From Gordius albopunctatus (taxonomy: Eukaryota), in contig OZ193909.1 of assembly GCA_964276515.1 (NCBI GenBank), positions 12,524,001 to 12,588,000 on the forward strand: a DNA stretch of 64,000 bases, read 5' to 3'. Shown piece after piece: positions 1,030 to 47,532 of this stretch (the first letter of the stretch is position 1; each line of letters opens with the position of its first letter). The position numbers and the translations under genes were made by a program. Under the pieces are notes generated by a model. It saw nothing but the letters and a program-made list of their open reading frames with translations, ran no database searches and was not told where the DNA came from.

Positions 1030-2538
1030 TATTCTTCTTTCTATGACTGTTTGTCACCTAAGCTGGTGGTCAGTCCTTTCAGCATTCGTTTCCATTTGTC
1101 TCTATATTTAATACATAGATCTTTCTTTATCTTGTTAACTTTCATATCGTGCCTTATTTTATGGATCCAGGTAAGCTTGGGTCTTCCTCTCCTTCGTTTT
1201 CCTGCGAAATTTATCTTTTAGATTTTATTTCCAACTAGCTATCGTCCCTTCTCTCGACATGGCCATACCATCTTAGTCTGTTTGTTAGGAGCTTTGCCGT
1301 AATTGATGTAATACCCAAAATTCTTATTTCTTCATTTCGTTTATGTTCCTTCTTACTCCTAACACCCATCTTACAATTCTCATCTCCATAGACGCAAGAC
1401 GCTGCTCTTCCCTTTTACGTATATCTCATTATTCCGAGCTATACAGGACTGTTTACTGTATGATGGATTTATACAATTCACCTTTTAGTCTTCTTGGGAT
1501 GTTTTTGTCACACAGAACGCCTGTTAAATCTTTCCATTTGAGCCATCCTGAATTAATCCCTGCTTGGATTTCTTTATCCATCTGACCATCCGATTGAAGT
1601 GTTGATCTTAAATATTTGAAGGAATCCACTCTTGTAAGTTGCCAATCGCCTAAAGTAAGGGATGCACATAGCTGATTTTCATCTAATTTAATCTTTCTCT
1701 GTAATCTGTTTTCTTTCGATTTACCCTGAGACCACTTTCTTCTATAGAATTTACATTTACCCATCTATTTACAGTATTAGCCAACTCTTGTTCACTTTTG
1801 GCACAGAGGATTATATTGTCCTCAAACATCATTGCCCAAGGAGCTTCCTCGCCCAAATCCTTGGTAATAATATCCATTATCATTATGAATAGGAACTAAG
1901 ACCTGAACCTTGATGGACTACAGTGTTAATGGTAAAGCCCTTTGTAGTCCCCTCCGTTGTTCTAACGTAGGTTCTATTTCCCTTGTACATATCTTTTATT
2001 GCTATGACGTATAATTCTGGCACATTGTTTTCTTTCGACATTTCCACACTAAAGTACGAGTAACTTTATCAAACGCTTTTTCTATTAGATCGATGAAACA
2101 CATGTGCAAATCCTTCTCCCTTTCTCTAAATCGTTCCAATAACCTTCTAACACCATTTAGGGCGTCTGCTGTAGACCTCTCCGGCATAAATCCGAATTGG
2201 TTATCTTGAATTTGAACTAAACTCCGAAGCCCTTTTTCGATCACTTTTTCCCACACCTTGAAAGTGTGACCCATATGCTTTATCCCTCTGTAATTGTTAC
2301 AATCCTGAATTTCTCCTTTTATATTATATATATCGGTATCATGTAACTTTCCCTCCACTCGTTACGCATTTTACCCATTTTCAAGATATTGTTGGTGCAC
2401 CAGTATTGTCTAGTCTGGTCCAAGAGCTTTTTCTGCTTTTAGTTTACCCATGGGAACTTTGATCTCCGTTCCCGTGATCCAGTTCCAGTCCGCTGTCTTT
2501 AATTCTCCTATTGTATTTTCCTGATTAATGTCTTCGAC
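1030..2538 (-). pseudogene. Degenerate RTE-clade LINE reverse transcriptase region and 3' end (family B)
   Basis: Broken ORFs with KALGPD, DCNNYRGIK, QFGFMPERST, FIDL(I)EKAFDKV, APWAMMFEDNIILC (decayed YADD), FKYL; GAA-type tail near 1030-1042; several frameshifts. Confidence 0.9.
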
Positions 2539-3824
2539 GTACTCTTGATAATCCTCCGACTTTTTTGATTTATGCCACCGTCTATATAGATTTTTCTTTA
2601 TTTCGATGAAATCTTTAACCGCTTGATCCCACCACCATAGTTCCCTATTCATAGCTTTGCCTCCTTTGGTCTGTCCTAGAACACGAATCGCTGTAATGTC
2701 CTTAGATAGCGTCTCCCAATCTTCGTCTACGTCCCTTTGCAACTTCCTTGCACCCAAGAGTGAGGAGGCTTTTTGATGGTATTCTTCGTTCGTCGACGTA
2801 TTCTTTAGCCTTTCGTATCGAATTCGAGGTTCATATACCTTTCTTCTTTCGGGAAATACTCTTCTGTCAAGATCCATAACAAGGGGACGATGTTGCCTGG
2901 CGATTTCTTTTCCCGGTATTACTTTGCAATCCTTGATACTCCATAAGTCCTTTCGCCGTATAAGCAAATAGTCGATTTGACTAAAATGCTTGCCACTTCT
3001 ATAGGTCACAATATGATCTTCGCGCTTTTGAAAATAGGTGTTAACGATCGCCATGTTATATGCTTAGGATACTTGGAGAAGTTTTTCCCCTTCTTTGTTC
3101 TTCAGACCATGCCCATAGCCTTCATGATTGCGTTCATACCCGAGGCGATCTTTCCCAATGTGAGCGTTGAAATCTGCCCCAATAATTAGCCTTTCTTCCT
3201 GTCCTATTCCTTGTATTTCCTTTTCCAATGAATCGAAGAATATGTCTTTCTCTGATTACAAACATCCAATTTGGGGGGCATACGCGCACATAACGGTTAG
3301 GAGGCCCCCTTGATCTGCAATCTTCACCCACATTAGTCTGTCGGAACAACGCTTTACTTCCACCACCTTGTCCTTGAACGATTCACTTAGAACGATACCG
3401 ACCCCGTTTCTACGATTTGATGACCCACTGTAGAAAAGCTTGTATCCTTCTCCTAATTCCCGAGCTTTCGTTCCGTTCCACCTCGTCTCTTGTGTACCTT
3501 TCTTCTTTTTAGCATCTGTGCGACTTCGATGCTCTTCCCCGTCAACGTTCCCACATTCCAGCACGTAATTCGCATTCTTTCCACAACTAGTTTCCTTAAC
3601 CGCCTTCGTTGTGAGTTGGGTAGTAACCCTAGTGTATTTTTCACATTGCACGGGCGGGGTATGCAGTGCGCGTCGTTTGTGGATGACGCCCTAGTCTTTT
3701 CTTGTAAAATCCTGTTAGAAACTATCATAGTTTTGGAGTTAATTTTTATAGCCGGTTTCCGACCTGAAGCCAACCCTCCACTTTTTGCACATGGACTTGG
3801 GACCGTCGTAGGTAGGGTTTTGCA
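2539..3824 (-). mobile_element. 5' half (UTR + AP endonuclease) of RTE LINE family A, frameshifted
   Basis: WNVGTL, QETRW, GVGIVL, AYAPQ, GADFN, SQIDYLL motifs; near-identical to 12925-14130; homology stops abruptly at 2539. Confidence 0.92.
3769..3824 (-). ncRNA. Degenerate twister ribozyme-like motif in the RTE 5' UTR
   Basis: Minus strand AA-CCCT-ACC-TAC-GACG-GTCCCAAG-TCCATGTGC-AAAA-AGTG-GAGGG-TTGGC aligns with the rice twister as I recall it (UAA-CACU-GCC-AAU-GCCG-GUCCCAAGC-CCGG-AUAAA-AGUG-GAGGG). Confidence 0.7.
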
Positions 3825-5289: not shown

Positions 5290-5424
5290 TTGGAATGTAT
5301 GGAGAATGGAATATCAAAATCCTATGTTGAGATTTATAATGGCCTTAGTGACAACGCAGCGAGCGAAATCGCTGCTGTTGACCTGATGATAAGGTACATT
5401 AAAAATAGAAATAACGAAATATAC
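5290..5424 (+). pseudogene. hAT transposase remnant, left part (interrupted by the LTR element)
   Basis: SDNAAS motif; joins in frame to 12006 when the LTR element and one TSD are removed (...NEIY-HHRCACHIMNLVVK). Confidence 0.75.
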
Positions 5425-6132
5425 TTTTACATCCTTCACCCAAAGGGGAATATGTATTTGTTCTTTGCTGGGAGATTATTTATTTGTACGAGATTATTCA
5501 CCAAATCTATGATACTCTAATGCTAATTTATTCACTCCAAAAATGATAATACAACTCCGGAAACGGGATATAATTGAAGTATTCTGCAATAAGTGTTAAC
5601 ACCACAATAATAGCGCGGGAATATAATTTCTAGCGATTACAGGGGGGGGGGGGGGGAATTGGGTTTACAATGGAGAAATTTTCATTCTACGGGATGAAAT
5701 CCTATTTCTCTGTTTTTCTCTGTACTATCGATTTTGCTGGGACTTATATAGGTTTCTTTTCTTGGCCTGTGCCTTTATCCTTGAAACTTCTTTTCTTTTT
5801 GACCCATTTTACCGCGCCAATTTCGTGATGAATGGCCCTTCACTTCCAAGGCTTTTCCACGTCCTTTGGAATACTCAGCTGACAGTTCTAGGTTTTCCCT
5901 ACCTTTCTTATGCCAATTCAATATTTATTACCAGGTTATGTCGTACCCTTGCTTTTCCTTCTGCTACTTCTTTCAGGCCAAGTCTTAATTTATAGCTGTA
6001 TCCTTGTACTATTTAACTACCAACCCAAATTTCGGTAACCTTCCCTTTCCCTTCGTTTATTTTTCATCTTATCACGTGCTCATGCCTTATAAGGGCTGGT
6101 TCCCTTTTTAATATTTTCTCATGGATATGACA
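5425..6132 (-). repeat. 3' LTR (708 bp)
   Basis: Direct repeat of 11293-12000; starts TGTCA on the minus strand right after the PPT. Confidence 0.97.
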
Positions 6133-6327
6133 CCTCCCTTTTCTTCGGGGATCACGTCTCGGGGGGGGCCTTCTGGTTGAGTGTTCACGGTGGTTGGATA
6201 GGTGGGTGGAACAGGTGGTTGGGTCAAGTGGTTGGGATCTTCCAATTTCGGTCGTTCGTTTTCTGGTCCTTGTTTCAGGTTTCCTGTTGATATTTTGTTC
6301 CTTTCGATGGTCATCGTAGTACGTCAC
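6064..6327 (-). CDS. Putative spliced accessory ORF4 (Arg/Pro-rich, 87 aa) running into the 3' LTR
   Basis: Open frame begins right after the acceptor-like TTTTATAATAG; no in-frame ATG; no recognised homology. Confidence 0.35.
   Translation of the reverse strand: MTYYDDHRKEQNINRKPETRTRKRTTEIGRSQPLDPTTCSTHLSNHREHSTRRPPPRRDPRRKGRCHIHEKILKREPALIRHEHVIR
6133..6146 (-). other. Polypurine tract
   Basis: GAAGAAAAGGGAGG immediately before the 3' LTR. Confidence 0.9.
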
Positions 6328-6575
6328 CTATTATAAAATATAAATGCTGCCCGATCCCTAATACAGGATCAGTAGCCATATTCACCTCTACATCAACACC
6401 CTCCTACGTTATCACAACTTTTATTTCCAATCAACACACCAAATTTTCATATTGATATATGGGGAATAATTCTATAAATGACACAGCACACAGGGGATAA
6501 TTTATATCAATAACAGGTCAATCGGGTACATAAATTATATACATCATAGGGCCATTGTCCCTCAAGAGTGGCTTT

Positions 6576-6923
6576 TCACTCCTTCCCTTCTTCCAGTTTG
6601 AAACTCTTTAACCTTTCTCCAATTTCTTCCCAAACGTTTGTTGGGGGTCTAGCGTTCGTCTGGGTTTCTACATCCGTCTGGGTCCCTACACTTTTAAAGT
6701 TGTCTTTCTTCTTCGCCTTCTCCACCTTTTCCCTCGTCCATTTCTTCTTAATCCCTCTCGTGGTACACTTTCTTCCCCTGCTCCTCCAGGGACACGTCTG
6801 CCAGCGATGAGTTCCTCGTTCATCACATATATAACAAATTATTCCTTCTACCTGCACTTCCGACCCATAGTAACACTGCCACGTTCTATGGCTGTCATAC
6901 TGCCAGCACACCTTACATTGGAG
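6576..6923 (-). CDS. Post-integrase ORF3 with two CX2CX5HX4C zinc knuckles and a basic region; probably a spliced exon
   Basis: CKVCWQYDSHRTWQC and CYICDERGTHRWQTC; preceded by TATTTTATTACAG; no ATG. Confidence 0.7.
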   Translation of the reverse strand, partial: LQCKVCWQYDSHRTWQCYYGSEVQVEGIICYICDERGTHRWQTCPWRSRGRKCTTRGIKKKWTREKVEKAKKKDNFKSVGTQTDVETQTNARPPTNVWEEIGERLKSFKLEEGKE

Positions 6924-6950
6924 CTGTAATAAAATAGATTTCCTTAGTCC

Positions 6951-8177
6951 CTACTGGTCTCGTCGCCGTAACTGGTCAATATGCCTCCAAAATTCCTTAC
7001 CGTCTTCTATCGTCACTCGACACCTTACCCCTCCTTCTACGGCGATCACTAACCCCTTTACCCACTTACTCGGACCTTGATACATTTTAACCCAAATCGT
7101 ATCCCCTAATTTAAAGCGGGCTGCCCTCCCTAAATAACTCCCTCCCTCTACCCTTCTCAACTCGTCTAGCCATACCCTCCCTCGTCGTCCCAAGAATCTC
7201 GATGACGGGGACTGGCCATCTCCTCCCTTCGCGTTATTATACATTAACTTCATCTGCCACTGCTCGGATGTCCCCCTTTTCTCCTTAAGAATCCACCCTT
7301 TAACTACTCCCACCATTCTTTCCACCTGCCCGTTGGAACTGGGATGATAGGGTGGGGTGATAATATGTTCTATCCCTTGACTTCCACAAAATTCTTTAAA
7401 CTTTACGCTACTAAATGCTGGACCTCCGTCGGACACTATCAGTTTTGGTAATCCATATCGCGCCAATAGTCCTTTCAATATCCTTATTACAATCCGGGTC
7501 GAACTTCCATTAACCTTTTCGTACTCTACCCATTTAGTACCGGCGTCCACCGCTATAAAATATACCTGCCCTAGACACTCGAAAAAATCTAGATGCACCC
7601 TATCCCACGGATTTTGTGCCCTGGCCCATTGGCTACCTTTAATTTTGGGTGGCATCGCGGCTATGCTATTGCATGCCTCACATTGCCTGCAGAGATATTC
7701 GCTATCCTTTCTGATACCGGGCCACCAGATATATTCTCGCGCCCATCTCTTCATCTTTACCATACCCTGATGTCCTTTATGTAACTCATTTAACACCTCC
7801 TTCCTTAACACATCGGGGATGATTATCTGTAGACCTTTCATAATACATCCATCCACTATGCTTAATTGCCTTTTGATTTTTTGGTACTTTCTCAGGGCGA
7901 GGGGCCACTCGGCTTCTCCTCGAATACACTGGCCTAATTTCTTTAGTTCGACATCCCTCTCCGTTGCTTCCTTGACATCCATCCAGGAGATTGGTCCTCC
8001 GTCCGATATTCTTAAAATGTATGGTGCATCATTGTTATTATAGTTTTCTTCTATTGCTCCGCTGCTTCCTTCTTTATCGTCTTCCTGTTTTTGAGGGCCC
8101 ATTCGTGATAAAGTATCTGCGATATAATTATCCTGGCCTCTTCTATATTTTATTTCCACTTCAAATGCTCCTACCAT
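6951..8177 (-). CDS. RNase H C-terminal remnant + integrase of the LTR element
   Basis: IKYRRGQDNYIADTLSR; H-H-C-C finger (LHKGHQG...CEAC); DDE core (RVHLDF, VSDGG, GQVERMV). Confidence 0.95.
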   Translation of the reverse strand: MVGAFEVEIKYRRGQDNYIADTLSRMGPQKQEDDKEGSSGAIEENYNNNDAPYILRISDGGPISWMDVKEATERDVELKKLGQCIRGEAEWPLALRKYQKIKRQLSIVDGCIMKGLQIIIPDVLRKEVLNELHKGHQGMVKMKRWAREYIWWPGIRKDSEYLCRQCEACNSIAAMPPKIKGSQWARAQNPWDRVHLDFFECLGQVYFIAVDAGTKWVEYEKVNGSSTRIVIRILKGLLARYGLPKLIVSDGGPAFSSVKFKEFCGSQGIEHIITPPYHPSSNGQVERMVGVVKGWILKEKRGTSEQWQMKLMYNNAKGGDGQSPSSRFLGRRGRVWLDELRRVEGGSYLGRAARFKLGDTIWVKMYQGPSKWVKGLVIAVEGGVRCRVTIEDGKEFWRHIDQLRRRDQ

Positions 8178-8190
8178 TACGAGCCATCTC

Positions 8191-10287
8191 TTAGTAATTT
8201 ATCAATCCCAAAAAGGATTGCAGTTCTTTTTTGGAAGCTGGTGCACGAAGGTTACTTACTGCCGCGATCTTACTCTCTATGGGCCTAATGGTACCATTTT
8301 CGATAATATGCCCCAAATATTCGACTGTATTTACATCAAAAATACACTTTTCTTTGGACACTCTTAATCCATTGTCATCAATAATTTGTAAAACTTGTCG
8401 TAATTTATAATCATGTTCCGCTTGTGTTTTTCCTGCCACTAATAGATCATCTATATAATAGAAGACACCTTCTATTCCTCGAAATAATGAATTCATGGCC
8501 ATCTGAAAGATTGGAGCCGAAATACTTAATCCAAAAGGTAATCTCAAAAACTTAAATAGACCTAAATGTGTGTTTATTGCTAGGGCTTGACTCATCTCTT
8601 TTGATACCTTCAATTGTAGGTAAGCCGTTACAAAATCTAATTTTGAGAAGTGTTTACATCCATTCAACTCCACCAAAATCTCCTCTAAACGCGGCAATGG
8701 AAATTTTAGACTCTCAATACAAGGATTTAGAGTGATACGAAAGTCTGCACACAATCTCAACTTACCATTAGCCTTCCTTACCGGTACTAGGGGCGTTGCC
8801 CAATAACTAAAGGATACCGGTTTGGTTATTCCTTCTTTAACCCACTTGTTTAACTCCTCCTCTATTTCACCGCGCCATTCATAAGGTACTCTTCGAGCTG
8901 AACAAAATTTCGGGGTTACTCCCGGTTTTAATTTCATCGTGGCCTCATAATTTTTCAAACATCCCAACTCTTTATTGAAAATTCTTGAAAACTCTGCACG
9001 AATCTCCTCAAATTTCGCGCCTGTACTCTCTTGCAACCTTAACTCCATGTTTATTAAATCACTACCCGAGGTCGGCTCAGTTCTTATTTTATTCAACCAG
9101 TCCACCTCAAAGTTTTGAATCCAGTCCCATCCTAAAATATTATTAACCCTTAGGTCCGATATATATAATATTAGATTTTTAACAACTCTATTTACGGTTA
9201 TACGCACGTCGCACTGTCCTATTAATTTTATATTGTCATTATTAAATAGCCTAACTTCCAATTTTGACTCTTTAAATAATCCACCGTTACAAATTCTAAA
9301 CCAATCATCTCTATTCACTACAGTTATGGATGAACCGGTGTCAAATATAAAATTAAGTTGAATTTTGTTACAGAATATTTTTACGCGGGGAACTGGGTTA
9401 TTTTTAATTTCCAGCATATTTATGGTAGGAATTTGCATTACTTCCTTTTTTATCGATTTTTGTTTGATAAAATTCCCTACAAGATCATGATTACGCGGCA
9501 ATGTTACGTTAAACACTTCCCAATTTCTTTTAATGGGTATTAAAGTTAATTTACATTGAGGATAGATAACAGGGGTGGTTTTTGTTGTTGTAAACTCGTT
9601 CAATTTTCCATAGTCATACCAATACTCGTAAGTTAAAAATAAAAATCTTCGACACATATACTTGTAAAAATTACTCGTGTTGACCTTATCAATTTGCTCG
9701 CTACCCTTCCAAGGATTTAAATAAAGGTTCATTTTACTTTTGTTATATTTATTTATTTCCGTTATATTATTTCTTCCCTTCCCTATTTTATTTTGATACT
9801 GGGTTTTGCTTTTTGGTACTTTAAAAACGGTAGATTGCATAAATGATTCCAGATTTAAACGGTCGTAAGTATATTCGCCCAAAACACAAAAATTGGTATT
9901 TCCTAACCAATAAAATTTATTCCAGATTTCAAATCGCCAACACGCCCGTGAGTACGATTTAATTATATACGTTGGTGGAGTATTAGGAATTTCGAATGGC
10001 TTAACCACGATTTCTCGGATCTCCTTTCCAATCGACCTATTCCCAAGATTTTTTATCTTTCGACAAACCATCTCTTTATACTCACCCAAAATATATGAAA
10101 AATACCCTTTTTGAGTATCTTTATAAAATATACAATTATTTTGTATATTAGAAGTGTTTTCAGAAGAATAATATTTGTCCCGTTTAAGTGTGTTATGCCT
10201 CCCATGTATTTTCAAAGTACCAAACTGCACTATATTTATCATAATTTTAATAAAAAGTTGCAAACCCCAAAATAATTTGTTCAACAT
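8191..10287 (-). CDS. Unknown N-terminal domain + aspartic protease + reverse transcriptase
   Basis: FIFDTGSS protease motif; WATPLVPV, LRLCADFR, SKLDF, RLPFGLS, YYIDDLLV; ends at SFLGLINY-stop where RNase H should follow. Confidence 0.95.
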   Translation of the reverse strand: MLNKLFWGLQLFIKIMINIVQFGTLKIHGRHNTLKRDKYYSSENTSNIQNNCIFYKDTQKGYFSYILGEYKEMVCRKIKNLGNRSIGKEIREIVVKPFEIPNTPPTYIIKSYSRACWRFEIWNKFYWLGNTNFCVLGEYTYDRLNLESFMQSTVFKVPKSKTQYQNKIGKGRNNITEINKYNKSKMNLYLNPWKGSEQIDKVNTSNFYKYMCRRFLFLTYEYWYDYGKLNEFTTTKTTPVIYPQCKLTLIPIKRNWEVFNVTLPRNHDLVGNFIKQKSIKKEVMQIPTINMLEIKNNPVPRVKIFCNKIQLNFIFDTGSSITVVNRDDWFRICNGGLFKESKLEVRLFNNDNIKLIGQCDVRITVNRVVKNLILYISDLRVNNILGWDWIQNFEVDWLNKIRTEPTSGSDLINMELRLQESTGAKFEEIRAEFSRIFNKELGCLKNYEATMKLKPGVTPKFCSARRVPYEWRGEIEEELNKWVKEGITKPVSFSYWATPLVPVRKANGKLRLCADFRITLNPCIESLKFPLPRLEEILVELNGCKHFSKLDFVTAYLQLKVSKEMSQALAINTHLGLFKFLRLPFGLSISAPIFQMAMNSLFRGIEGVFYYIDDLLVAGKTQAEHDYKLRQVLQIIDDNGLRVSKEKCIFDVNTVEYLGHIIENGTIRPIESKIAAVSNLRAPASKKELQSFLGLINY

Positions 10288-10649
10288 GTTAAAATTTCTA
10301 TTAATCCTTTATTAATTTTTTACTATGACCCTTTTACTTTAAATTCTTCATGCTAATGATACCTTTTATTATTATTTTTTTTTTGATCAAAATCAAAGTT
10401 CAACACTAGTAGTCAAAAAATTTTATTTATACATATCAATATTAATATATTTTATGCAAATTGAACCATAAACATATTATGCACTAAAATCAATAAAATT
10501 TATTATAAAAATTGATATTTTATATTATATAACGAATTCGACATAGCAAGCGCGGGGGGGGGGGGTTACGAACATTATGGGGAAGGTGCTAACATTATTT
10601 TTTATATTATTAGTAATTGCACATTATTATTAAAATAAAATATAAGTTC

Positions 10650-10985
10650 TTAGGGCTTATATTTGGGAAATAACATTTTATTTTTGCAAAATTCAGCATA
10701 ATGCCCAATATCTCCACAATTTACACATCGGGGAGTGACATAATTATTTTTACTTTGGTTTGGGGTATGTAATGATGGATTATTTAATTGCTTATTATTA
10801 AAATAACAATTACGCTGTAAATGATTTGTGTTTCCGCACGTGAAGCACCTCACTCTCTTGGTTAATTTATTAACTAACTGTCCAATTAAAATGCCCAATA
10901 TCAAAATAACAAAGTAATCAATATATTCATATAAATCAGCAAACAAATTTCTTAAATAAAATCGATTATCGTTTTTACCAAACAT
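10650..10985 (-). CDS. ORF1: small protein with a predicted TM helix and two CCHC zinc knuckles (nucleocapsid-like)
   Basis: Hydrophobic YFVILILGILIGQLV; CFTCGNTNHLQRNC and CVNCGDIGHYAEFC (CX2CX4HX4C). Confidence 0.85.
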   Translation of the reverse strand: MFGKNDNRFYLRNLFADLYEYIDYFVILILGILIGQLVNKLTKRVRCFTCGNTNHLQRNCYFNNKQLNNPSLHTPNQSKNNYVTPRCVNCGDIGHYAEFCKNKMLFPKYKP

Positions 10986-11163
10986 GCTAAAATATATTTT
11001 TTAAAATTAATAATTAATGAAATTAATAAAATCACGAAAAATATTATATAATAAATTAACATACCTTTTTATAACGCTGGTTTCCGTGTGTGTCCATTAC
11101 GAATTTCGTCTGTTTTGATCGCGTCTGATTGCGGTTGAGTCTTACGGCTGTGTTTTGTCCTTT

Positions 11164-11284
11164 GGATTGCGGCGGTTTTGATTGTGTTGAATCTTAAGGT
11201 CGACTTTTGTACGAGTATAACCGGGATTGCGGCGGTTTTGCTTGTGTATAATCTTAAGGTCGTCTTTTGTACGAGTATAACCGG
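11164..11284. repeat. Two tandem 60-bp repeats in the LTR element leader
   Basis: GGATTGCGGCGGTTTTG...GTACGAGTATAACCG repeated at a 60-bp period. Confidence 0.95.
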
Positions 11285-11291
11285 GGCACCA
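11282..11291 (-). other. Primer binding site
   Basis: TGGTGCCCCG starting 1 nt after the 5' LTR; complementary to a tRNA ending CGGGGCACCA. Confidence 0.85.
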
Positions 11292-11292
11292 C

Positions 11293-12000
11293 TTTTACAT
11301 CCTTCACCCAAAGGGGAATATGTATTTGTTCTTTGCTGGGAGATTATTTATTTGTACGAGATTATTCACCAAATCTATGATACTCTAATGCTAATTTATT
11401 CACTCCAAAAATGATAATACAACTCCGGAAACGGGATATAATTGAAGTATTCTGCAATAAGTGTTAACACCACAATAATAGCGCGGGAATATAATTTCTA
11501 GCGATTACAGGGGGGGGGGGGGGGAATTGGGTTTACAATGGAGAAATTTTCATTCTACGGGATGAAATCCTATTTCTCTGTTTTTCTCTGTACTATCGAT
11601 TTTGCTGGGACTTATATAGGTTTCTTTTCTTGGCCTGTGCCTTTATCCTTGAAACTTCTTTTCTTTTTGACCCATTTTACCGCGCCAATTTCGTGATGAA
11701 TGGCCCTTCACTTCCAAGGCTTTTCCACGTCCTTTGGAATACTCAGCTGACAGTTCTAGGTTTTCCCTACCTTTCTTATGCCAATTCAATATTTATTACC
11801 AGGTTATGTCGTACCCTTGCTTTTCCTTCTGCTACTTCTTTCAGGCCAAGTCTTAATTTATAGCTGTATCCTTGTACTATTTAACTACCAACCCAAATTT
11901 CGGTAACCTTCCCTTTCCCTTCGTTTATTTTTCATCTTATCACGTGCTCATGCCTTATAAGGGCTGGTTCCCTTTTTAATATTTTCTCATGGATATGACA
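11293..12000 (-). repeat. 5' LTR (708 bp)
   Basis: Direct repeat of 5425-6132, followed by the PBS. Confidence 0.97.
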
Positions 12001-12005
12001 TATAC

Positions 12006-12840: not shown

Positions 12841-12925
12841 TTAATTAATTAATTAATTAGATGTTAACATTAACATTTTCTCTTTTTTTAATTAATTATT
12901 TTTAATTTTAATAAGTATTTAATTT

Positions 12926-14071
12926 ATGATAGTTTCAAACGAGATTTTACAAGAAAAGGCTAGGGCGTCCTCCACAAACGACGCGCACTGCATACCCCGC
13001 CCGTGCAATGTGAAAAATACACTAGGGTTACTGCCCAACTCACAACGAAGGCGGTTAAGGAAACTAGTTGTGGAAAGAATGCGAATTACGTGCTGGAATG
13101 TGGGAACGTTGACGGGGAAGAGCATCGAGGTCGCACAGATGTTAAAAAGAAGAAAGGTACACATCGCCTGCCTACAAGAGACGAGGTGGAACAGAACGAA
13201 AGCTCGGGAATTAGGAGAAGGATACAAGCTTTTCTACAGTGGGTCACCAAATCGTAGAAACGGGGTTGGTATCGTTCTAAGTGAATCGTTCAAGGACAAG
13301 GTGGTGGAAGTCAAACGTTGTTCCGACAGGCTAATGTGGGTGAAGATTGCAGATCAAGGGGGCCTCCTAACCGTTATGTGCGCGTATGCTCCCCAAATTG
13401 GGTGTTCGGAATCAGAGAAAGACATATTCTTCGAATCATTGGAAAAGGAAATACAAGGAATCCGACAGGAAGAAAGGCTAATTATTGGGGCCGATTTCAA
13501 CGCTCACGTAGGGAAAGATCGCCTCGGGTATGAACGCAATCATGGAGGCTATGGGCATGGTCTGAAGAACAAAGAAGGGGAAAAACTTCTCCAAGTATCC
13601 CAAGCAGATGACATGGCGATCGTTAACACCTATTTTCAAAAGCGCGAAGATCATATTGTGACCTATAGAAGTGGGAAGCATTTTAGTCAAATCGACTATT
13701 TGCTTATACGGCGAAAGGACTTATGGAGTATCAAAGATTGCAAAGTAATACCGGGAGAAGAAATCGCCAGGCAACATCGTCCCCTTGTTATGGATCTTGA
13801 CAGAAGAGTATTTCCCGAAAGAAGAAAGGTATATGAACCTCGAATTCGATACGAAAGGCTAAAGAATACGTCGACGAACGAAGAATACCATCAAAAAGCC
13901 TCCTCACTCTTGGGTGCAAGGAAGTTGCAAAGGGACGTAGACGAAGATTGGGAAACGCTATCTAAGGACATTAAGGAAACAGCGATTCGTGTTCTAGGAC
14001 AGACCAAAGGAGGCAAAGCTATGAATAGCTATGGTGGTGGGATCAATCGGTTAAAGATTGCATCGAAATAA
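12926..14071 (+). CDS. RTE apurinic-like endonuclease domain (frameshifts near 14028)
   Basis: WNVGTL, CLQETRW, GVGIVL, AYAPQ, GADFNAHVG, QIDYLL, QHRPL. Confidence 0.93.
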   Translation: MIVSNEILQEKARASSTNDAHCIPRPCNVKNTLGLLPNSQRRRLRKLVVERMRITCWNVGTLTGKSIEVAQMLKRRKVHIACLQETRWNRTKARELGEGYKLFYSGSPNRRNGVGIVLSESFKDKVVEVKRCSDRLMWVKIADQGGLLTVMCAYAPQIGCSESEKDIFFESLEKEIQGIRQEERLIIGADFNAHVGKDRLGYERNHGGYGHGLKNKEGEKLLQVSQADDMAIVNTYFQKREDHIVTYRSGKHFSQIDYLLIRRKDLWSIKDCKVIPGEEIARQHRPLVMDLDRRVFPERRKVYEPRIRYERLKNTSTNEEYHQKASSLLGARKLQRDVDEDWETLSKDIKETAIRVLGQTKGGKAMNSYGGGINRLKIASK

Positions 14072-14193
14072 AGAAAAATCTATATAGACGGTGGCATAAA
14101 TCAAAAAAGTCGGAGGATTATCAAGAGTACAGGGACGCAAAGAGGGCCGCAAAAAAGGCCGTTGCAAAAGCGAAGAATGCTGCGTACACCGAG

Positions 14194-15903
14194 ATGGCAA
14201 ACAAACTGGATCATAAAGGGGGCGATAGGCTTATGTACAAATTGGCCAAGATAAGGGAGAAGAAAAGTCGAGATGTCGGGGTTCTTAAAATAGTCAAAAG
14301 CGAGAAGGGTCAAACCTTATTCAAGCCGAAGGAAGTGATGGAAAGGTGGAAAGGATATTTTAAGAAACTTATGAATATTGCAAATGACAAGGATTCCCTT
14401 CCCGAAATTGAGCCAAATATAAGTATGGTCGAACTCTTTCAGAAGGATGAAGTTAGGACACAAATGAACAAGATGCAAAAAGGAAAAGCGAATGGCCCAG
14501 ATGGAATACCTATGGAAGCATTGCTCGGATGTCGTGAAGAAGGAGTCACCACCATGACGAACCTCCTTAACAAGATATTGGTAGAAGAGCGAATCCCTAA
14601 TCAATGGAGAGCAAGCACGATTATACCTTTATTCAAAGGGAAAGGAGACCCTCAGGACTGCGGCAATTACAGAGGTATCAAGCTAACTTGCCACTCCTTG
14701 AAGCTTTTGGAAAGGATCTTAGTAACAAGGCTGAAAAACGAGGTGGAAATATCGGCTAATCAATTCGGATTCGTGGCCGGCAAATCCACAATCGACCCAA
14801 TCTTTGCCCTAAGACAAATGATGGATAAGTATGGTGAAAAGAGGAAAGACCTACATATGGTTTTTATCGACTTGGAGAAAGCTTATGACACGGTCCCCCG
14901 CGATTTAATTTGGTGGTGCCTGAGGAAACAAAATATCCCTGACGCATATATACGGCTTATGAAAAATATCTATGAAGCCTCAAACTCTTGCGTTAGGACG
15001 ACAGTTGGAGACTCTAAACTTTTTCGGGTTAATATTGGATTACATCAAGGCTCTGCTTTAAGTCCCTTTTTATTTAATATAATTATAGACACGATAACGA
15101 GGGACTTTCTAAAGCCATCGCCATGGTGTATGCTATATGCCGATGATATAGTACTATGCGAGGAAACAAGGGAGAAGGTATTCGAAAAAGCAGAAAAGTG
15201 GTCAAAGCGCTTAGCTGGATATGGTTTAAAGGTCAACGATCGAAAAACGGTATACATGGAAATGAACGGTACAAGCACCCCATCGCTGGATGACCACCTA
15301 AAGTACCCAAAAGTAGACAGGTTTAATTACCTCGGCTCTATGCTACATCAAGAGGGAGGTTGCGCAACTGAAATCAATGCCCGGATTCAAAAAGGATGGC
15401 TTAAATGGCGAAGTATATCCGGTGTAATGTGCGACAAGAAAATGCCAATATGGTTAAAGAGCAAAGCTTACAAATCCATCGTAAGACCGGTGTTACTCTA
15501 TGGAAGTGAAACATGGGCATTAAACACCACGGAAGGAAAGCTATTACAAGCCACGGAGATGAGAATGATACGGTGGAGCTTGGGGTATACTAAGCTCGAC
15601 CATATGACGAATGACTTTCTCATGACAAAAATGGGTATTCAACCTATGGCGGACATGATTAACGAAAATCGGCTAAGGTGGTATGGGCATATACTAAGAA
15701 GGGACCCGGATGACGTAAATCGAAAAGTGCTAGACATGAAAATACCGGGGAAGAGAGGAAGAGGACGACCCCGTGTCACGTGGAAAAGGCAAGTCGATAA
15801 AGTTATGGAAACTAAAGAGATTCGTCAAGACATGGCACTAACCCGGTCAAGATGGAAGAGACTCATCAAAACAAACCCCACCAATGTGGGACCAAATAAC
15901 TGA
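14194..15903 (+). CDS. RTE reverse transcriptase domain
   Basis: GKANGPD, NYRGIKL, QFGF, FIDLEKAYD, GLHQGSALSP, LYADD, FNYLGS, RLRWYGHILRR, RGRGRP. Confidence 0.96.
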   Translation: MANKLDHKGGDRLMYKLAKIREKKSRDVGVLKIVKSEKGQTLFKPKEVMERWKGYFKKLMNIANDKDSLPEIEPNISMVELFQKDEVRTQMNKMQKGKANGPDGIPMEALLGCREEGVTTMTNLLNKILVEERIPNQWRASTIIPLFKGKGDPQDCGNYRGIKLTCHSLKLLERILVTRLKNEVEISANQFGFVAGKSTIDPIFALRQMMDKYGEKRKDLHMVFIDLEKAYDTVPRDLIWWCLRKQNIPDAYIRLMKNIYEASNSCVRTTVGDSKLFRVNIGLHQGSALSPFLFNIIIDTITRDFLKPSPWCMLYADDIVLCEETREKVFEKAEKWSKRLAGYGLKVNDRKTVYMEMNGTSTPSLDDHLKYPKVDRFNYLGSMLHQEGGCATEINARIQKGWLKWRSISGVMCDKKMPIWLKSKAYKSIVRPVLLYGSETWALNTTEGKLLQATEMRMIRWSLGYTKLDHMTNDFLMTKMGIQPMADMINENRLRWYGHILRRDPDDVNRKVLDMKIPGKRGRGRPRVTWKRQVDKVMETKEIRQDMALTRSRWKRLIKTNPTNVGPNN

Positions 15904-17286: not shown

Positions 17287-20129
17287 ATGAATAAGAAGCA
17301 AAACGATTCTTTGCAAGCTGAGTATAGAAATTTGTCGAATGATGCTAAAAAAAAGTATTCCCAAATTAAAGAAGTAAATTGACTACTTGATTTTATCAGC
17401 TATATCTAGGCAGCTGAGATCAGCATAGTTAAATTAAGAGAATGTCAGAATTTAGAATCAAGTAATGAGCATATATACCTAGATCTGCTACAGCCATTTG
17501 TTTTGGCTTGCGAAACGAAACAAACTAACTTGATTTTGTCATCATTATTAGGAATGCAGAAGTTACTTAACTATAATTTAGTCAACAAAGTAATGTTTAA
17601 ATAATTTGTGTTTATATGTTTCTAGGAAACTTCTACAATGATGGTTAAAATTATGATGAATTTGGTAAAAAATGGTACTGAGGAAATTAGGATCCTACAA
17701 ACAACAATTTTACTTTTGACCTCTAATACATTGGTTCAAAATAATATATTGGCTAATTCTTTAGTCAGTTGCTTTTTGATTTATTCCCAAAAAATGCCAC
17801 AGGATGCTCATGCTAAGGAAAAAGACAATGCAACAATTGTTAGCACTGCAGCTGCAACCATAAGACAATTAGTGTCAGTTGTACTTGAAAGGGTTACTTT
17901 AAAGAATATGGAATCTACCTTAAGTATTTATAATTTCTTCTTGCTCTTATACATATATATGGAATTGCTTGTACTCTACTCATCCTATTTTGAAAGTTAT
18001 TAACATAATAATTTGAGTTACATTTTATATGTAGCTATTATTATAACTGATTTTCAGAATATTCTGATCAAGCTTATTATTTTAAGCCTTCACTAAATTA
18101 TTTGCCTATTCCATATTCCTTAGACCAATGCATACTTGATAATTTAAAAAGAATAGACTAGTCAGGCTCTCTTGAAAATAGAAAATTGCAACTTTGCAAT
18201 TTTTATTGAAATTACCGTTCTAATTTAAATTAAAAAAATATTACATTTATACTTTTCCCAATGTAAAGTTAAATCTAAAATGCATATAACTTAGGAGTAA
18301 ACCTTGTTAAAGAACTTTAGGTAAAACATTATCAATCACAAAAAAAGCCTCAAGGTGTATTGTATTTATTAACCTTACATTCACCATGTTTCTCCAAAGT
18401 TTAAATTGTGAAATAATTACTGGTATAATCAATATTAAAATTACATCAAAATAAAATTTTTATGGACATGTAGGTTTATTTTTGGGATAATTTAGCATAC
18501 ATTTGGTATGAAGTACCCTTAGTAACTCCATGGATTGATAGTTCATATTATGTAAAAGTATATTTTTTTAGGTATTAAAATAAGAAAAAAGTCAAAATTA
18601 AGACGCTCTACTAATATTTATGAAATGAAGTAGGAAGTTTAATAAATATTACCTTAACATTCTATTAATCACTAGATGAACCCGGCAAACGTTGTTTTGC
18701 CATTTACCCGGTTGTATTAAATTATGTTGGAATTTTAGGGCATACATGATGATAAAGCATATTGAAGTAAAAATAAAGTTTGATAATTTTCAAACAAATA
18801 GTTAAAGAGGGTCCAAGGCCCAGGCCCACCCAAGAGAGAAAACCTGGTCCCATGCCCCCCCCCCCCCAAAGGAAAAATCTTTGGCCCCTGGCCCTTCAAG
18901 CAATTTTTTTTTGTGATTAAGAACCAATATCATAATTATTTGTTTCTGAATAAAACTTTTAATTCTGAACTTAATAATGTCCGAAGAACTGAGATATATC
19001 AACATTTATTGGCACTTTGTTAATTGTATTTTCATTTTTCTCCTTATTTAACGCGCAAAAAATGACAAAATTAGATTTTTAATTTATTCAGCCACGCAGG
19101 AGGGGACACGACCACCCTATAATAATAATAATAAATGACGTGAAAAATAAGCAAAAAAATGACTTTGATTCATGAGCGTACCCCTCCCCCCCCTAATTTA
19201 AAAAAAATAATTTTTCAATACAAAAACCCTTAAAAATTATGTTTTGCCCCCCCCCCCCCCTAATTAGCCAGGGAAGGGCAGAAAGGGCGGCTAACCCCTG
19301 CGAGTCTCAGGAAAAATTTAGGAATTTAGTAGTCGAAGACCTTTTTTGCTCTCATGAAAATTTTTGGATAGTCGAGAAAATTTTTTTTTGAAATCTGCCC
19401 CCCCCCCCCAATTCAAAACCTGTTTATTATACAATAATACCATTATTTTATTTTTCTAGTTAGCTGATTTATTTGAAATACAATTTTCTTTAATATAATA
19501 AAAAAATAATTGAAGGATGGATAATTATTGAAAATATGCTTCCATGATCGACCACGTGATAATAATTTAAATATTATTTATTTAATTTAAATAGTTTGTT
19601 AAACCCCAATAATTTTGACCGTATACTGTAACATTTTTATTATACTTTTAAATATCTAATGCGAGAAAACTTTAGCCTTGTATATATGACGTCATTATTG
19701 TATATGATGCTATAAATGAAACTGGCCGGGAAACGTCCGATATTTTTAAAACGAAAAGGTATTTTAGGAATCTGAAAAAGCTATTTTACCCCTGGCCGCC
19801 TTGGGCATCTACGGCTAAACTTTCGCGCGAATCGGGCCGGTAGTTTTAGAATTAAGCTATTTTTTAAAACTAAAAGGCCCATATTTTTAAAACTAAAAGG
19901 AATTTTAGGATTCTGAAAAAGCTTTTTTACCCCTGCTAGCCCTAGGCATATACGGTTAAATTTTCGCGCGAATCGGGCCGGTAGTTTCAGAATTTAGCCC
20001 TTACATACACATATACATGCATACATACATACATACATACATACATACATACATACATACATACATACATACATACATACATACATACATACATACATAC
20101 ATACATACATACATACATACATACATACA

Positions 20130-20161
<32 letters not shown>

Positions 20162-23100
20162 CTTTAGTTTATATATATAGATGTGTAAAACGGTGACATA
20201 ATGGCAAAGGGGGGGGGCCCTGAGGATTCCAAATTTTTATCTTTACCCGATATGGTCACTTTATCAAAATGACTCTTATTACTCTATTTCTATGAACTCT
20301 ATATTGTAATAGTAAATAATTGGCCGTGCTTTACAATCTATGGCAATAATTCAATGGCGAATAACTTGCGAAAAATAGTCAAAAGTAATAAAAATTTTAT
20401 TTAAAAATAGAATAATAATATTATTTATGGATGTTATGTACATGTAGCATGCAAAAATCAGTCAAAATCAAACAAAAATTTAACTATCGGTTGCTCCATC
20501 GTATTTTCCAACATGGTTAATTTCGGGTCAATATGACCCAGAGGTTTAAATTGCTGTAATTTACACTTATATTATTTGAACTCTTGCGCCCAATTTGACA
20601 CCATAAAGTCGATATTTTGACGACAGGTTAACGTTCTATGGATAAACAGATAAATATAAAGTTTTATTTCATTCTATAATTTATTTTCGTACTAAACTAT
20701 TATTCAATAAAATCTATATAAATAAGTTTTTATGTTAATATAAGGTTTAAAAGTGCCTAAAACGTAAGTGATGAGAGAAAATAGGCTAATTTTAATTTAC
20801 TCTTTTGAGCTATATTTACTAATTCTTCCTCAATTGAGATAACGGCTTTGGCTGGTTTTATTGACAAATCGATCCTAAAAATGACTTTTTCGGCCAACCC
20901 CTCAGGTTGCATAAAATTTGATGAGAATGTATAAAGTCTTTATATTCTTAATTTCCGAAAGTTTTAGCTCTTTTGGACCACTAAGTATCGAGTTGAGTTG
21001 TGGGCGTTCCAAGGGCAAAAATCAGTCTTTTAAGACATTTTCATAACGCTAAATTTGATCCCTACATAAAATCTTGTAATGACTGTGCGCATAAAATGGA
21101 TTTTGACAGTGGGAATTTTAAAAAAAATTACTTAACCGAAGAGACGGCCCGATTTACCACGGGTGGTGACTGCGAATCAAAAATAAGTGTTAACTCTAAT
21201 TTATATTTGCCTAAATTTTCCCATCTGTTTTAGCATGTGACTCCAAAATAATTAAACGCTTTTCGCTCTTATTAATTTTCTAGTGACCCTCTCTTCATAA
21301 TGCCCAACCCGGAATCGTTTTAAAATATTACATTAAAATAATAATTTGGTACTATTTTGAATATAATTGTACCATAAAATATTGTTTCTTGTATACTTAA
21401 CTTGTCGCCTTTCAAAAAACTGGAACGAATAAGTTAAAACCGATATATCTATTTTTCTCGAGTATTCGATCAAATTTTTTCTTTAGATGGCCATGAAGAT
21501 CAGACGAACCAATTTGAAAATGACTCCGCTATACAGATGGGGCCTGCCTTGTCGGACGCTTATCGCTTGTTTCAGGTGAGATTTTAAATTACATCAATTT
21601 CTATATATATACAAGCACGCGTGTAAATTGGGGCTATTTACTACTATATTGATAAAATAAATTTTGGATCAAAATTTCTTTAACATTAATTTAAAATGGA
21701 GGAATTTACAGACAATTATTGCTTAAAAAGATGAAGGCAATAATTTTACAAATTAAAAATAACTAATTCGACTAAAAATTGTGGTTATTTTAAAATACAC
21801 TTTCAAAGCAGTCGCGCAATTACTATGTTCATGTTGTATGCACCCACCTATAATTAAATTCAGGGATTCGAGTCGGACTTTTGAAAACAGCATTCATAAG
21901 TACACAGCAACCATATTGTAAAAAACCTCAATTATAACATAACATAATAGGTTACGAATAGATTCACATAGCAAAGTTTATAATTATAATCAGCAAGCTA
22001 ATCTATGAATGAAAAGTTAAATTGCCTGGGCTACATTCAACGCTGACATTTTCTTGGTCGAGCTGTTTTTCCAATTAATTGTAAGTGTAATTTTATGTAC
22101 AGGACTTGTGCCTATTAGCTCACGGGGACAAAACCGAATGGCTCAAAGAAATGCCCGTCGTGCCACGCACTTTCGCTTTAGAACTCGTGGAAACTATTCT
22201 CGACAAATTTAACCACACTTTTACATCTGTAAAATATTTTATTTTACATTATTCTACTACGTATTACTCAAAACATATTAATTCAGTTTTAGTTGTTAGG
22301 GAGTTAGCTTGTCTAACTGCATTAAAAATCCATAATTTCCTATTTTCCTATGCCTTCTACACAATACTTAATATATAGGTTTCGCTAACATAGTCTGTTC
22401 TTTTTTATGAAATTGTACGGAAAAAATTGTCCCATCCATTGAATAGTCATTTTTATTTTTACCCAAGCAAAGTTCAGAGAAACTGTTTAAAAAAGCAAGG
22501 CCAACAGGATTATTTTCCCAAATTAGAAAAGAAAAATTTGAATACATCATTTTTCGAACGTGTTTTTAAAGGAGCCGCAATTTTTCAAGCTGGTCAAAGA
22601 TAAGGTGTGCCCGTTGGTGATCAAACTATTTTCACCTAACGTGAAGTACGACCAAAACGAATCCACTCTAATGGCCACTGCGGGTGTAGCTGGGCACGGG
22701 GCCCCCTCTGTTTCTGGACAATCCAATGCCCCCTCGGATCGTACCTTGTTTCCCATTAATTTAAGATTGTTGCGCTTAGTGGGCACGCTAGTGAAACATT
22801 TTTACCAGCACTTGGTAAATACTTTTGAATTATTATCATTAGCACCTATGTATGATATATTGTAATTCTGTCAATATCATACATGTGAAGTATTGATTGA
22901 TCCTTTATTCGTGTATACGAGGATGCAAGGTTTACGTAGACGCAATGAGCCACGCGTATTTCAAACGAATAGATACTACAAAATAGTAGTGTTGGCGAAA
23001 GGGGTGCGGGTTTTGGTTGATTGACGGTTTGACCTTTAGTCTGTGTATGTTTAATGGGCTAAAACCAGAGGTCGAAAAACAAAACCCCCCCCCCCGGCCC

Positions 23101-42127: not shown

Positions 42128-43903
42128 TAGGGATGGCACAATGGGAATTTTCGCGGGGAAAATTCCCCTGAAAAATATATTTTTTTAATTAAATATGTAT
42201 GATATAATTTAAGTTATATATTATTTTAATTTACTTTAATCTCAAATTTACCTCGTGGGAACCAATATTTTAAATATTTCCTAATTTATAATTTGTGAAA
42301 ATTTTCTTAAATACTATTAACATCTAGTTGTTAACTTAAAAGATTTTGCAATCTACACTAAATTTAATTATCTCAATAATCAGGTAAAACAATATACCCT
42401 TATAGTTACATTAACAATTAGTTCTCTAGTGTAAAATTCTTTCCATATAAGGTAAATTTACACATGCTTGTAAATTTAATTCAATGTTTAGCAAAATCAT
42501 TTAAATTTTATATTGCCATTTTACTCTAAATCTTAAAATATTATATACCAACTTAATAGTAAGTATAAGTAATATTTAAAAAATATATCAACTTGTTATT
42601 TAACATTAGAGAATTTGGAATCTACACTGAAATTAATTATTACAATAATCCTAGATAAGCTTTTAAGTTATATTAACAGGTAAATTTACATATGTTTGAA
42701 TATTTAAAATATTTAGCAAAATCTATTATATTTTTATTGCCATTAACTGTTAAAATATTTTTACCAACTTCAAATCAAGTAATCTTAAATAGATATTTAT
42801 TTTATGCTAGTATTTAATTTTTTGATATAGAAGTATTTGTTATATCTAACTAAATTAAGATTTCTACATTTTATTTAAACTGAATTTACACACAATTCTA
42901 GTAAAAATAACCTGTAATCCTTTGAAAACAATAAATGTAAAAATTTAATATTATTAAACTTATTTTTTTGACTAATAGTTAGTTTTTTTTACTAATAGAT
43001 GCCAAGAAAAACATCTGACATTTGGAAACATTTATCTTCAAATAAGAAAGGTTGTATTGCTGTTTGCAATTATTGCAATTTAAAATATACATTTCCAAAC
43101 TCAACCAAAATGACAAATCATATAGCTAAGTGCCCAGATTTTATAAAGGAAAAGAATTGTTAAGAAGTTTTCTTAATGCCCCCCTCTCCCCAATCATCAA
43201 TTTGTGAGGTAATGCTTGAAAAATGCCCTATACAACAAACATCTGCTTCATGTGACCCAAAACCATCAACATCCAATATTATTAGTTACTTTGATAGCAT
43301 GACCCAAACTCAGCAAGAGAAATTAGATGAAAAATTAGCATTGGCTATTTACATGTCTAACTGTCCCTTCAATATTATCGAGAATCCATTTTGGAAGGAA
43401 TTTTTCAAACTTATAAAACCTTCATACAAACCCCCTTCCAGAAAGGCCATAGGTGGTCCATTGCTAGATAAACAATTTGACAAGATAACGATGATTATAA
43501 ATGAAAAAATTAACTCTGCCTCAAATTTTACATTAGTCAGTGATGGGTGGACGAACATAAGAGGAGAATCAATCATTAACTTCAATTTTTTTAAGTCTAT
43601 TGATACAGGATCAAATGCTCACACTGGAGAATACATATCTGAGGAATTTCTAAAAGTGACGCAAGAAATTGGATCACAAAAGTTTATAGCAATTGTGACT
43701 GACAATGCAAAAAATATGATTTATGATTTTCTTGTATTTGCTTCTTTATATTGTCTGACTAATAAATTTTATTAATCTTAATCATACTCATGAACATTTT
43801 TTTATATTAATTTACCTGTCTTGCTCGTTATTTCCCCTTAATTTCTTGTTTTTTCCCGTCAATTTTCCCTTAATCGAATTTCCCGGGAAAATATCCATCC
43901 CTA
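42128..43903 (+). mobile_element. Internally deleted hAT transposon
   Basis: TIR TAGGGATGG/CCATCCCTA; perfect 8-bp TSD GAAGGAAC; GGGAAAA subterminal repeats. Confidence 0.95.
42999..43775 (+). pseudogene. Truncated hAT transposase (BED zinc finger + start of catalytic core)
   Basis: IWKH...CNYC...NHIAKC; YKPPSRK; LVSDGWTN; IVTDNAKNM; disrupted near 43160; C-terminal half absent. Confidence 0.9.
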
Positions 43904-47303: not shown

Positions 47304-47532
47304 GATGTTGAATCGATTTAGAAGAAGACACGCAATTCGATATGATGGGGGATGCAAGCTAAATATACGACATAAATATAAATCATAGAGATCATCTTTT
47401 TTCCCAAAATTTTATAATACAAGATGTATTTAAGAAAGTTCCAACAATAGGGCTAATTTTCCTTCGAATTACGATTCTTTTTTACGGCGTTAAAAGCAAA
47501 TCCCAAATCAAATCTGCACTTTCTATCATAAT

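Follow-up and report, generated by a model that had tools for sequence, protein, structure and literature searches.

A candidate leader-spliced zinc-knuckle protein behind the integrase of a young Mag-type retrotransposon in Gordius albopunctatus

Described systems and the Gordius locus

HIV-1 Rev is a small two-exon protein that combines a basic stretch for RNA binding and nuclear localisation (the nuclear localisation signal, NLS), oligomerisation and a Leu-rich nuclear export signal (NES). How the intron-containing genomic RNA of simple long terminal repeat (LTR) elements is exported is little known, and the sole worked example found in the literature is CERV of Cer1, a Gypsy/Ty3 element of C. 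elegans; export of the genomic RNA there requires the Cys loop of CERV (PMC10309623; here and for the other papers cited by PMC number, statements refer to excerpts of the source). We analysed a 64,000-nt stretch of the Gordius albopunctatus genome (assembly GCA_964276515.1, contig OZ193909.1, 12,524,001 to 12,588,000, forward strand), hereafter the window. Its minus strand carries a Ty3/gypsy LTR retrotransposon of Mag type (K02A2.6-like) and very recent origin, in which an ATG-less third open reading frame (ORF3) with two zinc knuckles follows the integrase, at the place that the envelope gene (env) occupies in retroviruses.

Compared by description, CERV has 517 aa and five exons partly shared with gag, with a C4-type loop and ring-forming and G-like domains (PMC10309623), whereas the proposed ORF3 product has 126 aa from two exons and carries two CCHC knuckles and TQT motifs. 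The leader-to-3' splice of env in the errantiviruses ZAM and Beagle is similar in pattern to the splice proposed here, but it yields an F-type envelope that has a signal peptide and a membrane anchor (PMC12992720), whereas ORF3 has no hydrophobic segment (best 19-residue Kyte-Doolittle (KD) score 0.47) and therefore is not an envelope; the pol of the element is of Mag type. An errantivirus-type envelope (env-F or gB-like, with signal peptide and membrane anchor) was not found in ORF3, which gave no Pfam match either. Of the gypsy env analogy drawn in a first-pass annotation of this DNA, the splice pattern is probable, while the element is Mag-type and not an errantivirus, and CERV is a better analogue than env.

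Spliced and non-env third ORFs are already known (PMC5408684, PMC7264820), as are env-carrying elements (PMC13524379). In bdelloid LTR elements, non-env ORF3s place other cargo in the env slot, typically expressed from spliced messages, but those described for Juno, Vesta and TelKA are DEDDy, GDSL, transmembrane or coiled-coil proteins, with no knuckle ORF3 among them in the excerpted text (PMC5408684). The Mag-clade loci L001 and L002, the closest database hits, share with the element the order protease (PR), reverse transcriptase (RT), RNase H (RH) and integrase (IN), two adjacent gag knuckles and the LTR start TGT (PMC5408684, PMC3601003). Canonical Mag elements, as excerpted, have a single frame running from capsid (CA) and nucleocapsid (NC) through PR-RT-RH-IN and no post-integrase knuckle frame, whereas here an ORF of its own encodes the gag knuckles together with a hydrophobic helix, and the LTRs end in AA (5425-5426 and 11293-11294, minus strand); for Mag LTRs a terminal CA is listed (PMC3601003). 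In the main text of open-access literature, no Mag-type element turned up that makes a knuckle protein by splicing from the leader. The ORF3 product resembles Rev in layout only, since Rev has no zinc knuckles. If the reading proposed below is true, this modular 126-aa candidate in a different lineage would represent a convergent invention of Rev-like control.

The post-integrase frame, its proposed splice and its relatives

The ORF3 main exon (6576..6923, minus strand) spans 348 nt, 115 codons and a stop, and encodes two CX2CX5HX4C zinc knuckles at 6917-6873 and 6836-6792 (span 6792..6917). It shares the frame of the integrase, with one TAG between them, and contains no ATG between the integrase stop and its own end, so that its translation depends on a splice, on readthrough or on an unusual start. 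At least two knuckles were found in 0 of 100,000 residue shuffles of ORF3, and base shuffling left the exon open in 10 of 20,000 cases. Based on these two tests, the post-integrase frame is real coding sequence, and the pair of knuckles in a frame without an ATG, as the first-pass annotation had reported, is beyond chance. Across the six frames of the 64 kb there are four knuckle-like motifs, every one inside the element.

All coordinates of the first-pass annotation proved correct when checked on the minus strand. The proposed leader coding exon (11065..11097, minus strand) opens with the ATG at 11097 and runs for 11 codons up to a GTATGT donor (11065/11064) in phase 0. Its ATG is the third past the TATA-like box, has G at -3 and +4, and is preceded by upstream ORFs of 6 and 1 codons; if left unspliced, the leader exon would itself be a 13-codon upstream ORF. 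At the other end, the 27-nt spacer behind the integrase stop (6924..6950, minus strand) holds the stretch CTAA (6947-6944), which we take to be branch-point-like from the consensus, followed by a T-rich tract and the CAG acceptor at 6924 (6924/6923), also in phase 0. The GT-AG intron proposed between them (6924..11064, minus strand) would be 4,141 nt long and would remove ORF A and pol, and the joined product would have 11 + 115 = 126 aa, the length given before.

Splice sites were ranked by a rough heuristic score whose frequencies are general ones that we assume to apply, not derived from this host. Among the 348 AGs within the internal region, this score places the acceptor AG at 6924 first; the leader donor GT at 11064 ranks first of 28 in the leader and fourth of 332 in the element. 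With the observed score as threshold, a phase-0 acceptor equally good arose in 1 of 10,000 shuffled local pieces and in 3 of 10,000 shuffles of the spacer. The base composition also changes at both sites: GC content drops from 42% to 10% across the leader donor and amounts to 17% in the last 18 bases ahead of the acceptor, against 48-50% in their flanks. Taking the sites and their phase together, the splice from 11065 to 6923 probably occurs. Two other acceptors proposed by eye, a proximal one at 10986 (score -4.3) and a phase-0 one in pol at 10224 (-6.3), scored poorly and were dropped. A further phase-0 acceptor, ranked 5 of 348, opens an 87-codon Arg/Pro-rich frame (6064-6327, minus strand) that runs into the 3' LTR; it may be a chance match or a second exon that the leader donor could join.

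Other copies were compared through the contig tables of two public DNA runs, X1 and X2, among the 40 of 415 variants and the 15 of 32 joints listed. In both runs, main-family contigs show no differences across the integrase stop and the acceptor; this copy therefore shares its integrase stop with others. One diverged contig has 28 differences in 261 nt of integrase (89% alike), and its alignment ends at 6949. About one third of its next 30 letters differ when read by eye, yet the core TAA, a T-rich stretch and, at unchanged distance, a YAG are kept. The acceptor triplet there has the TAG form, which is a stop on a codon boundary of the ORF3 frame, and one further stop triplet precedes it. This contig favours an intron over readthrough, as far as a single and possibly decayed copy can indicate. 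The conservation among diverged copies that the first-pass annotation had named as a check was accordingly seen for the acceptor side in that one contig, by eye. Another contig aligns solely at 6769-6803, the end of the second knuckle. Among the exon variants, 15 of 31 fall at third positions, the three knuckle-region variants found in both runs are all synonymous, and the single apparent stop is accompanied by an adjacent change of the same depth, the two combined giving no stop. At the level of these variants, selection on the ORF3 exon is suggested.

The nearest integrase is that of P0008, a gene model of the horsehair worm Gordionus (XP_065315252.1; 44% identity), which is sister to the integrase of the window on a long branch (SH-aLRT 99) in a quick tree of 36 sequences, comprising 34 of the 76 hits, the window and an outgroup. 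The named integrase matches scoring best are K02A2.6-like, and the tree, which holds no labelled reference Mag elements, leaves its deep forks open. Of the 76 hits, 41 extend to the C-terminus of the integrase, and P0008 alone has a knuckle after the integrase; we regard it as a lead. Downstream of the integrase, 17 of 18 distant loci show no knuckle, two of these offering less than 200 bases to inspect, and the lone match (L016) recurs upstream too. Searches with ORF3 in the Atlas gave matches under 0.9 only, and two further hits, an NHL-repeat protein and a repeat protein, were judged spurious. Viral-contig scans returned nothing, while metagenome and genome scans returned distant elements only. 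The loci L009-L024 come from GTDB bacterial genome bins with contigs of animal-type Mag retrotransposons, which represent host contamination.

A candidate export adaptor weighed against its alternatives

Behind the knuckles, the ORF3 product has a basic patch (6696..6785, minus strand) with 14 Lys or Arg against 3 Asp or Glu in 30 residues and a bipartite-NLS-like match from 6749. It is followed by two TQT motifs of the LC8 anchor type (6657..6683, minus strand), which lie six residues apart and look like an 18-nt duplication. As in LC8 clients, the 8-residue motif lies in a disordered region and has its TQT anchor close to the end; an LC8 gene was not found in five contaminated genomes. An NES-like hydrophobic pattern (6594..6632, minus strand; W98, I101, L105, F108 and L110) forms a predicted C-terminal helix, which is the sole part of the ORF3 model with a predicted local distance difference test score (pLDDT) above 50; the single-sequence fold as a whole reached 41.9, too poor for a fold search. 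In residue shuffles, a class-1a NES arose at a rate of 3.1%, the five-anchor NES at 0.7%, a bipartite NLS at 6.3% and two TQT motifs at 0.1%, where the 5.7% for one TQT is the fairer figure as the pair looks duplicated. The presence of an RNA-binding element, an NLS and an NES as patterns suggests a Rev-like layout.

Considering that the leader donor and the 3' acceptor are both strong, genomic RNA that retains this intron would need an export route, which the spliced message would provide. We tentatively propose, as an account that as a whole stands at somewhat less than even chances, that the spliced 126-aa protein is a Rev/CERV-like adaptor exporting the unspliced RNA of the element. The full-length RNA would either be kept unspliced, as genome and as message for ORF A and pol, or be spliced from 11065 to 6923, and the spliced RNA would yield the 126-aa protein from the leader exon and the ORF3 exon. 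The knuckles and the basic patch would bind the RNA of the element, the basic patch would import the protein into the nucleus, the TQT motifs would recruit LC8 and thereby dimerise the protein, and the C-terminal helix would bind CRM1, so that unspliced element RNA is exported. If the splice is granted, we hold the combined set of roles (RNA binding, import, LC8 dimerising and CRM1 binding) to be slightly better than an even bet on these motifs.

Several observations weigh against this account. The acceptor score is also reached by 4 of 170 AGs on the pyrimidine-rich antisense strand of the element and by 21 of 6,022 in the whole window. Synonymous changes make up 11 of 31 exon variants against 7.5 expected (P = 0.11; 31 of 32 variants used, the one in the ORF3 stop codon being omitted), three variants hit knuckle cysteines, with low-depth ones at Cys17 and Cys44, one contig has a 1-nt deletion in the exon, and deletion copies lack either 6902-7171, with the acceptor, or 6571-8534, with the whole exon. 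The gene model P0008 may fuse unrelated pieces, and its knuckle has canonical spacing with a tail unalignable to ORF3 (E 0.81). No homologue of ORF3 was found: a search restricted to lengths of 63-202 gave no candidate, and there was no match in PDB or Pfam. With regard to the motifs, which were looked for after the fact, the two TQTs stem from one duplication, and pol contains seven further NES patterns and ORF A two. According to the excerpted reports, about half of consensus-matching NESs bind CRM1 (PMC5358978) and many TQT peptides fail to bind LC8 (PMC6607443).

The same splice could serve another job, and all the splice evidence applies equally to it. The product would then be a second nucleocapsid-like protein or a cytoplasmic RNA adaptor, with a link to LC8 and dynein or a part in packaging, replacing a capsid Gag. 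Two knuckles as in NC, two TQT motifs and the lack of a Mag capsid match in the element, where controls gave 1e-19 to 1e-24, are consistent with this, and a Sirevirus Gag is described to bind LC8-family proteins (PMC2829016). However, ORF A already provides two canonical knuckles, the NLS-like and NES-like pair suits shuttling better, and LC8 mostly dimerises its partners, which does not imply transport. We consider this alternative rather unlikely. Silent cargo, in which a captured or vestigial knuckle-coding piece has lost its expression, would agree with a synonymous excess that is not significant, with the existence of copies whose exons are broken or deleted and with the non-autonomous state of this copy. 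It seems quite unlikely given an open frame with intact knuckles, immediately preceded by the highest-scoring acceptor of the element, and main-family contigs that are identical across that acceptor.

While the sites and phase behind the env-like leader splice of the first-pass annotation hold, it had missed two ways of joining ORF3 to the integrase. Occasional readthrough of the integrase TAG would give a Pol-ORF3 fusion with the knuckles as a C-terminal add-on of the integrase. ORF3 does lie in the integrase frame behind one TAG with a spacer that is open in this copy, the env-like protein of SIRE1 is made likewise, and P0008 holds integrase and knuckle in one predicted chain. However, the sequence 3' of the stop shows no exceptional structure (z 0.64), the top-scoring acceptor of the element would stand here by chance, and in the diverged contig, read by eye and possibly decayed, extra in-frame stops would leave the exon unreachable; readthrough is improbable on this balance. 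A fusion would also result from a 105-nt intron between a phase-0 donor at 7028 and the same acceptor, which would remove the last 25 residues of the integrase. The donor at 7028 scores nearly as well as the leader donor (4.9 versus 5.2), short introns are easily spliced and the acceptor would be explained as well. Such an intron would, however, cut the conserved RHIDQL end of the integrase and leave the leader ATG, the donor and the GC step unexplained, and three of four nearby donors are out of phase, as by chance. We regard it as the least probable of the alternatives, together with its variant in which a weaker phase-0 donor at 10853 would produce a membrane-anchored form.

Element anatomy, gag region and surroundings

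The element spans 12000-5425 on the minus strand (length 6576). Its 5' LTR (11293..12000, minus strand; 708 nt), with a TATA-like box near 11618 and AATAAA at 11400 and 11352, is identical to the 3' LTR (5425..6132, minus strand). A 5-bp target-site duplication lies at 12001..12005 with its partner copy at 5420-5424, in agreement with the joint of the empty site, and was preferred to a 4-bp TATA duplication, which was dropped. The empty insertion site (5421/12003) is present in both X1 and X2, where the joint skips 6,581 bases. Because this equals the element plus the duplication (6576 + 5) and the LTRs are identical, the insertion is recent and polymorphic. One base past the LTR, a primer-binding-site-like stretch (11282..11291, minus strand) begins with TGG and, we presume, resembles elongator tRNA-Met; the 64-kb window contains no tRNA gene for comparison. 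Two tandem 60-nt leader repeats (11164..11283, minus strand) are 93% alike, and a polypurine tract adjoins the 3' LTR (6133..6146, minus strand). LTRs, target-site duplication, primer-binding-site-like stretch and polypurine tract are thus all present, as in Ty3/gypsy LTR retrotransposons.

Pfam matches to protease, RT and integrase follow the order PR-RT-RH-IN, with protease and RT at 8191..9384 and the RNase H end and K02A2.6/Mag-type integrase at 6951..8198 (both minus strand; stop TAG at 6953-6951). RNase H is mostly lost in this copy: about 150 codons are missing at the break at 8191-8198 compared with L001. In run X2 loose ends occur at 8191/8192, where other contigs continue differently, and this copy is therefore non-autonomous. 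As the LTRs of this RNase H-deleted copy are identical, either it was already defective and moved in trans, or the deletion arose very recently.

On the gag side, ORF A (10650..10985, minus strand) encodes 111 aa with a hydrophobic helix (KD 1.84), a basic stretch and two canonical CX2CX4HX4C knuckles. We rejected ORF A as an sORF2/FAST-like protein because it lacks an N-terminal Gly and has knuckles and because the 412 sORFs are unspliced. In the pol frame, an orphan pre-protease extension of about 300 codons (9385..10308, minus strand; first ATG 10287) stayed open in 0 of 20,000 shuffles. It has no Pfam or Atlas match, and its single-sequence fold is of low confidence (pLDDT 33.8), too poor for a search. 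No part of the element matched a profile of eight Mag-type capsid regions, while the controls L014 and L020 matched at 1e-19 to 1e-24, and the single gag-pol frame of Mag with a capsid followed by two knuckles is not found here. A hidden, diverged capsid fold may exist in the gag region; Cer1 Gag has a CA fold despite no sequence likeness to CA (PMC10309623). Since every bin of the gag region is covered in both DNA runs, nothing obvious marks the layout as peculiar to this copy. The gap in the gag region is AT-rich and contains several AATAAA.

That a family which moved so recently seems to lack a capsid is a further puzzle in its own right. In an unlikely but wider scenario, a long-branch Mag-related lineage would have given up the canonical capsid Gag, would carry a membrane-anchored knuckle protein and an orphan 300-residue pre-protease domain instead, and would have independently invented a minimal two-exon Rev, encoded in the env slot and combining zinc knuckles with NLS, LC8 and NES motifs, to export its genomic RNA.

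The LTR element is flanked by an endonuclease-RT non-LTR element (12923-15900, plus strand) and its inverted copy (2413-3729, minus strand; 97% alike). Elsewhere in the window, a long ORF (45426-47411, minus strand) matches NTP_transf_7 (E 2e-112) and is presumably of TENT5/FAM46 type, a DUF659 fragment (43164-43772, plus strand) is probably a DNA transposase remnant, and a long TACA microsatellite extends over 19990-20170.

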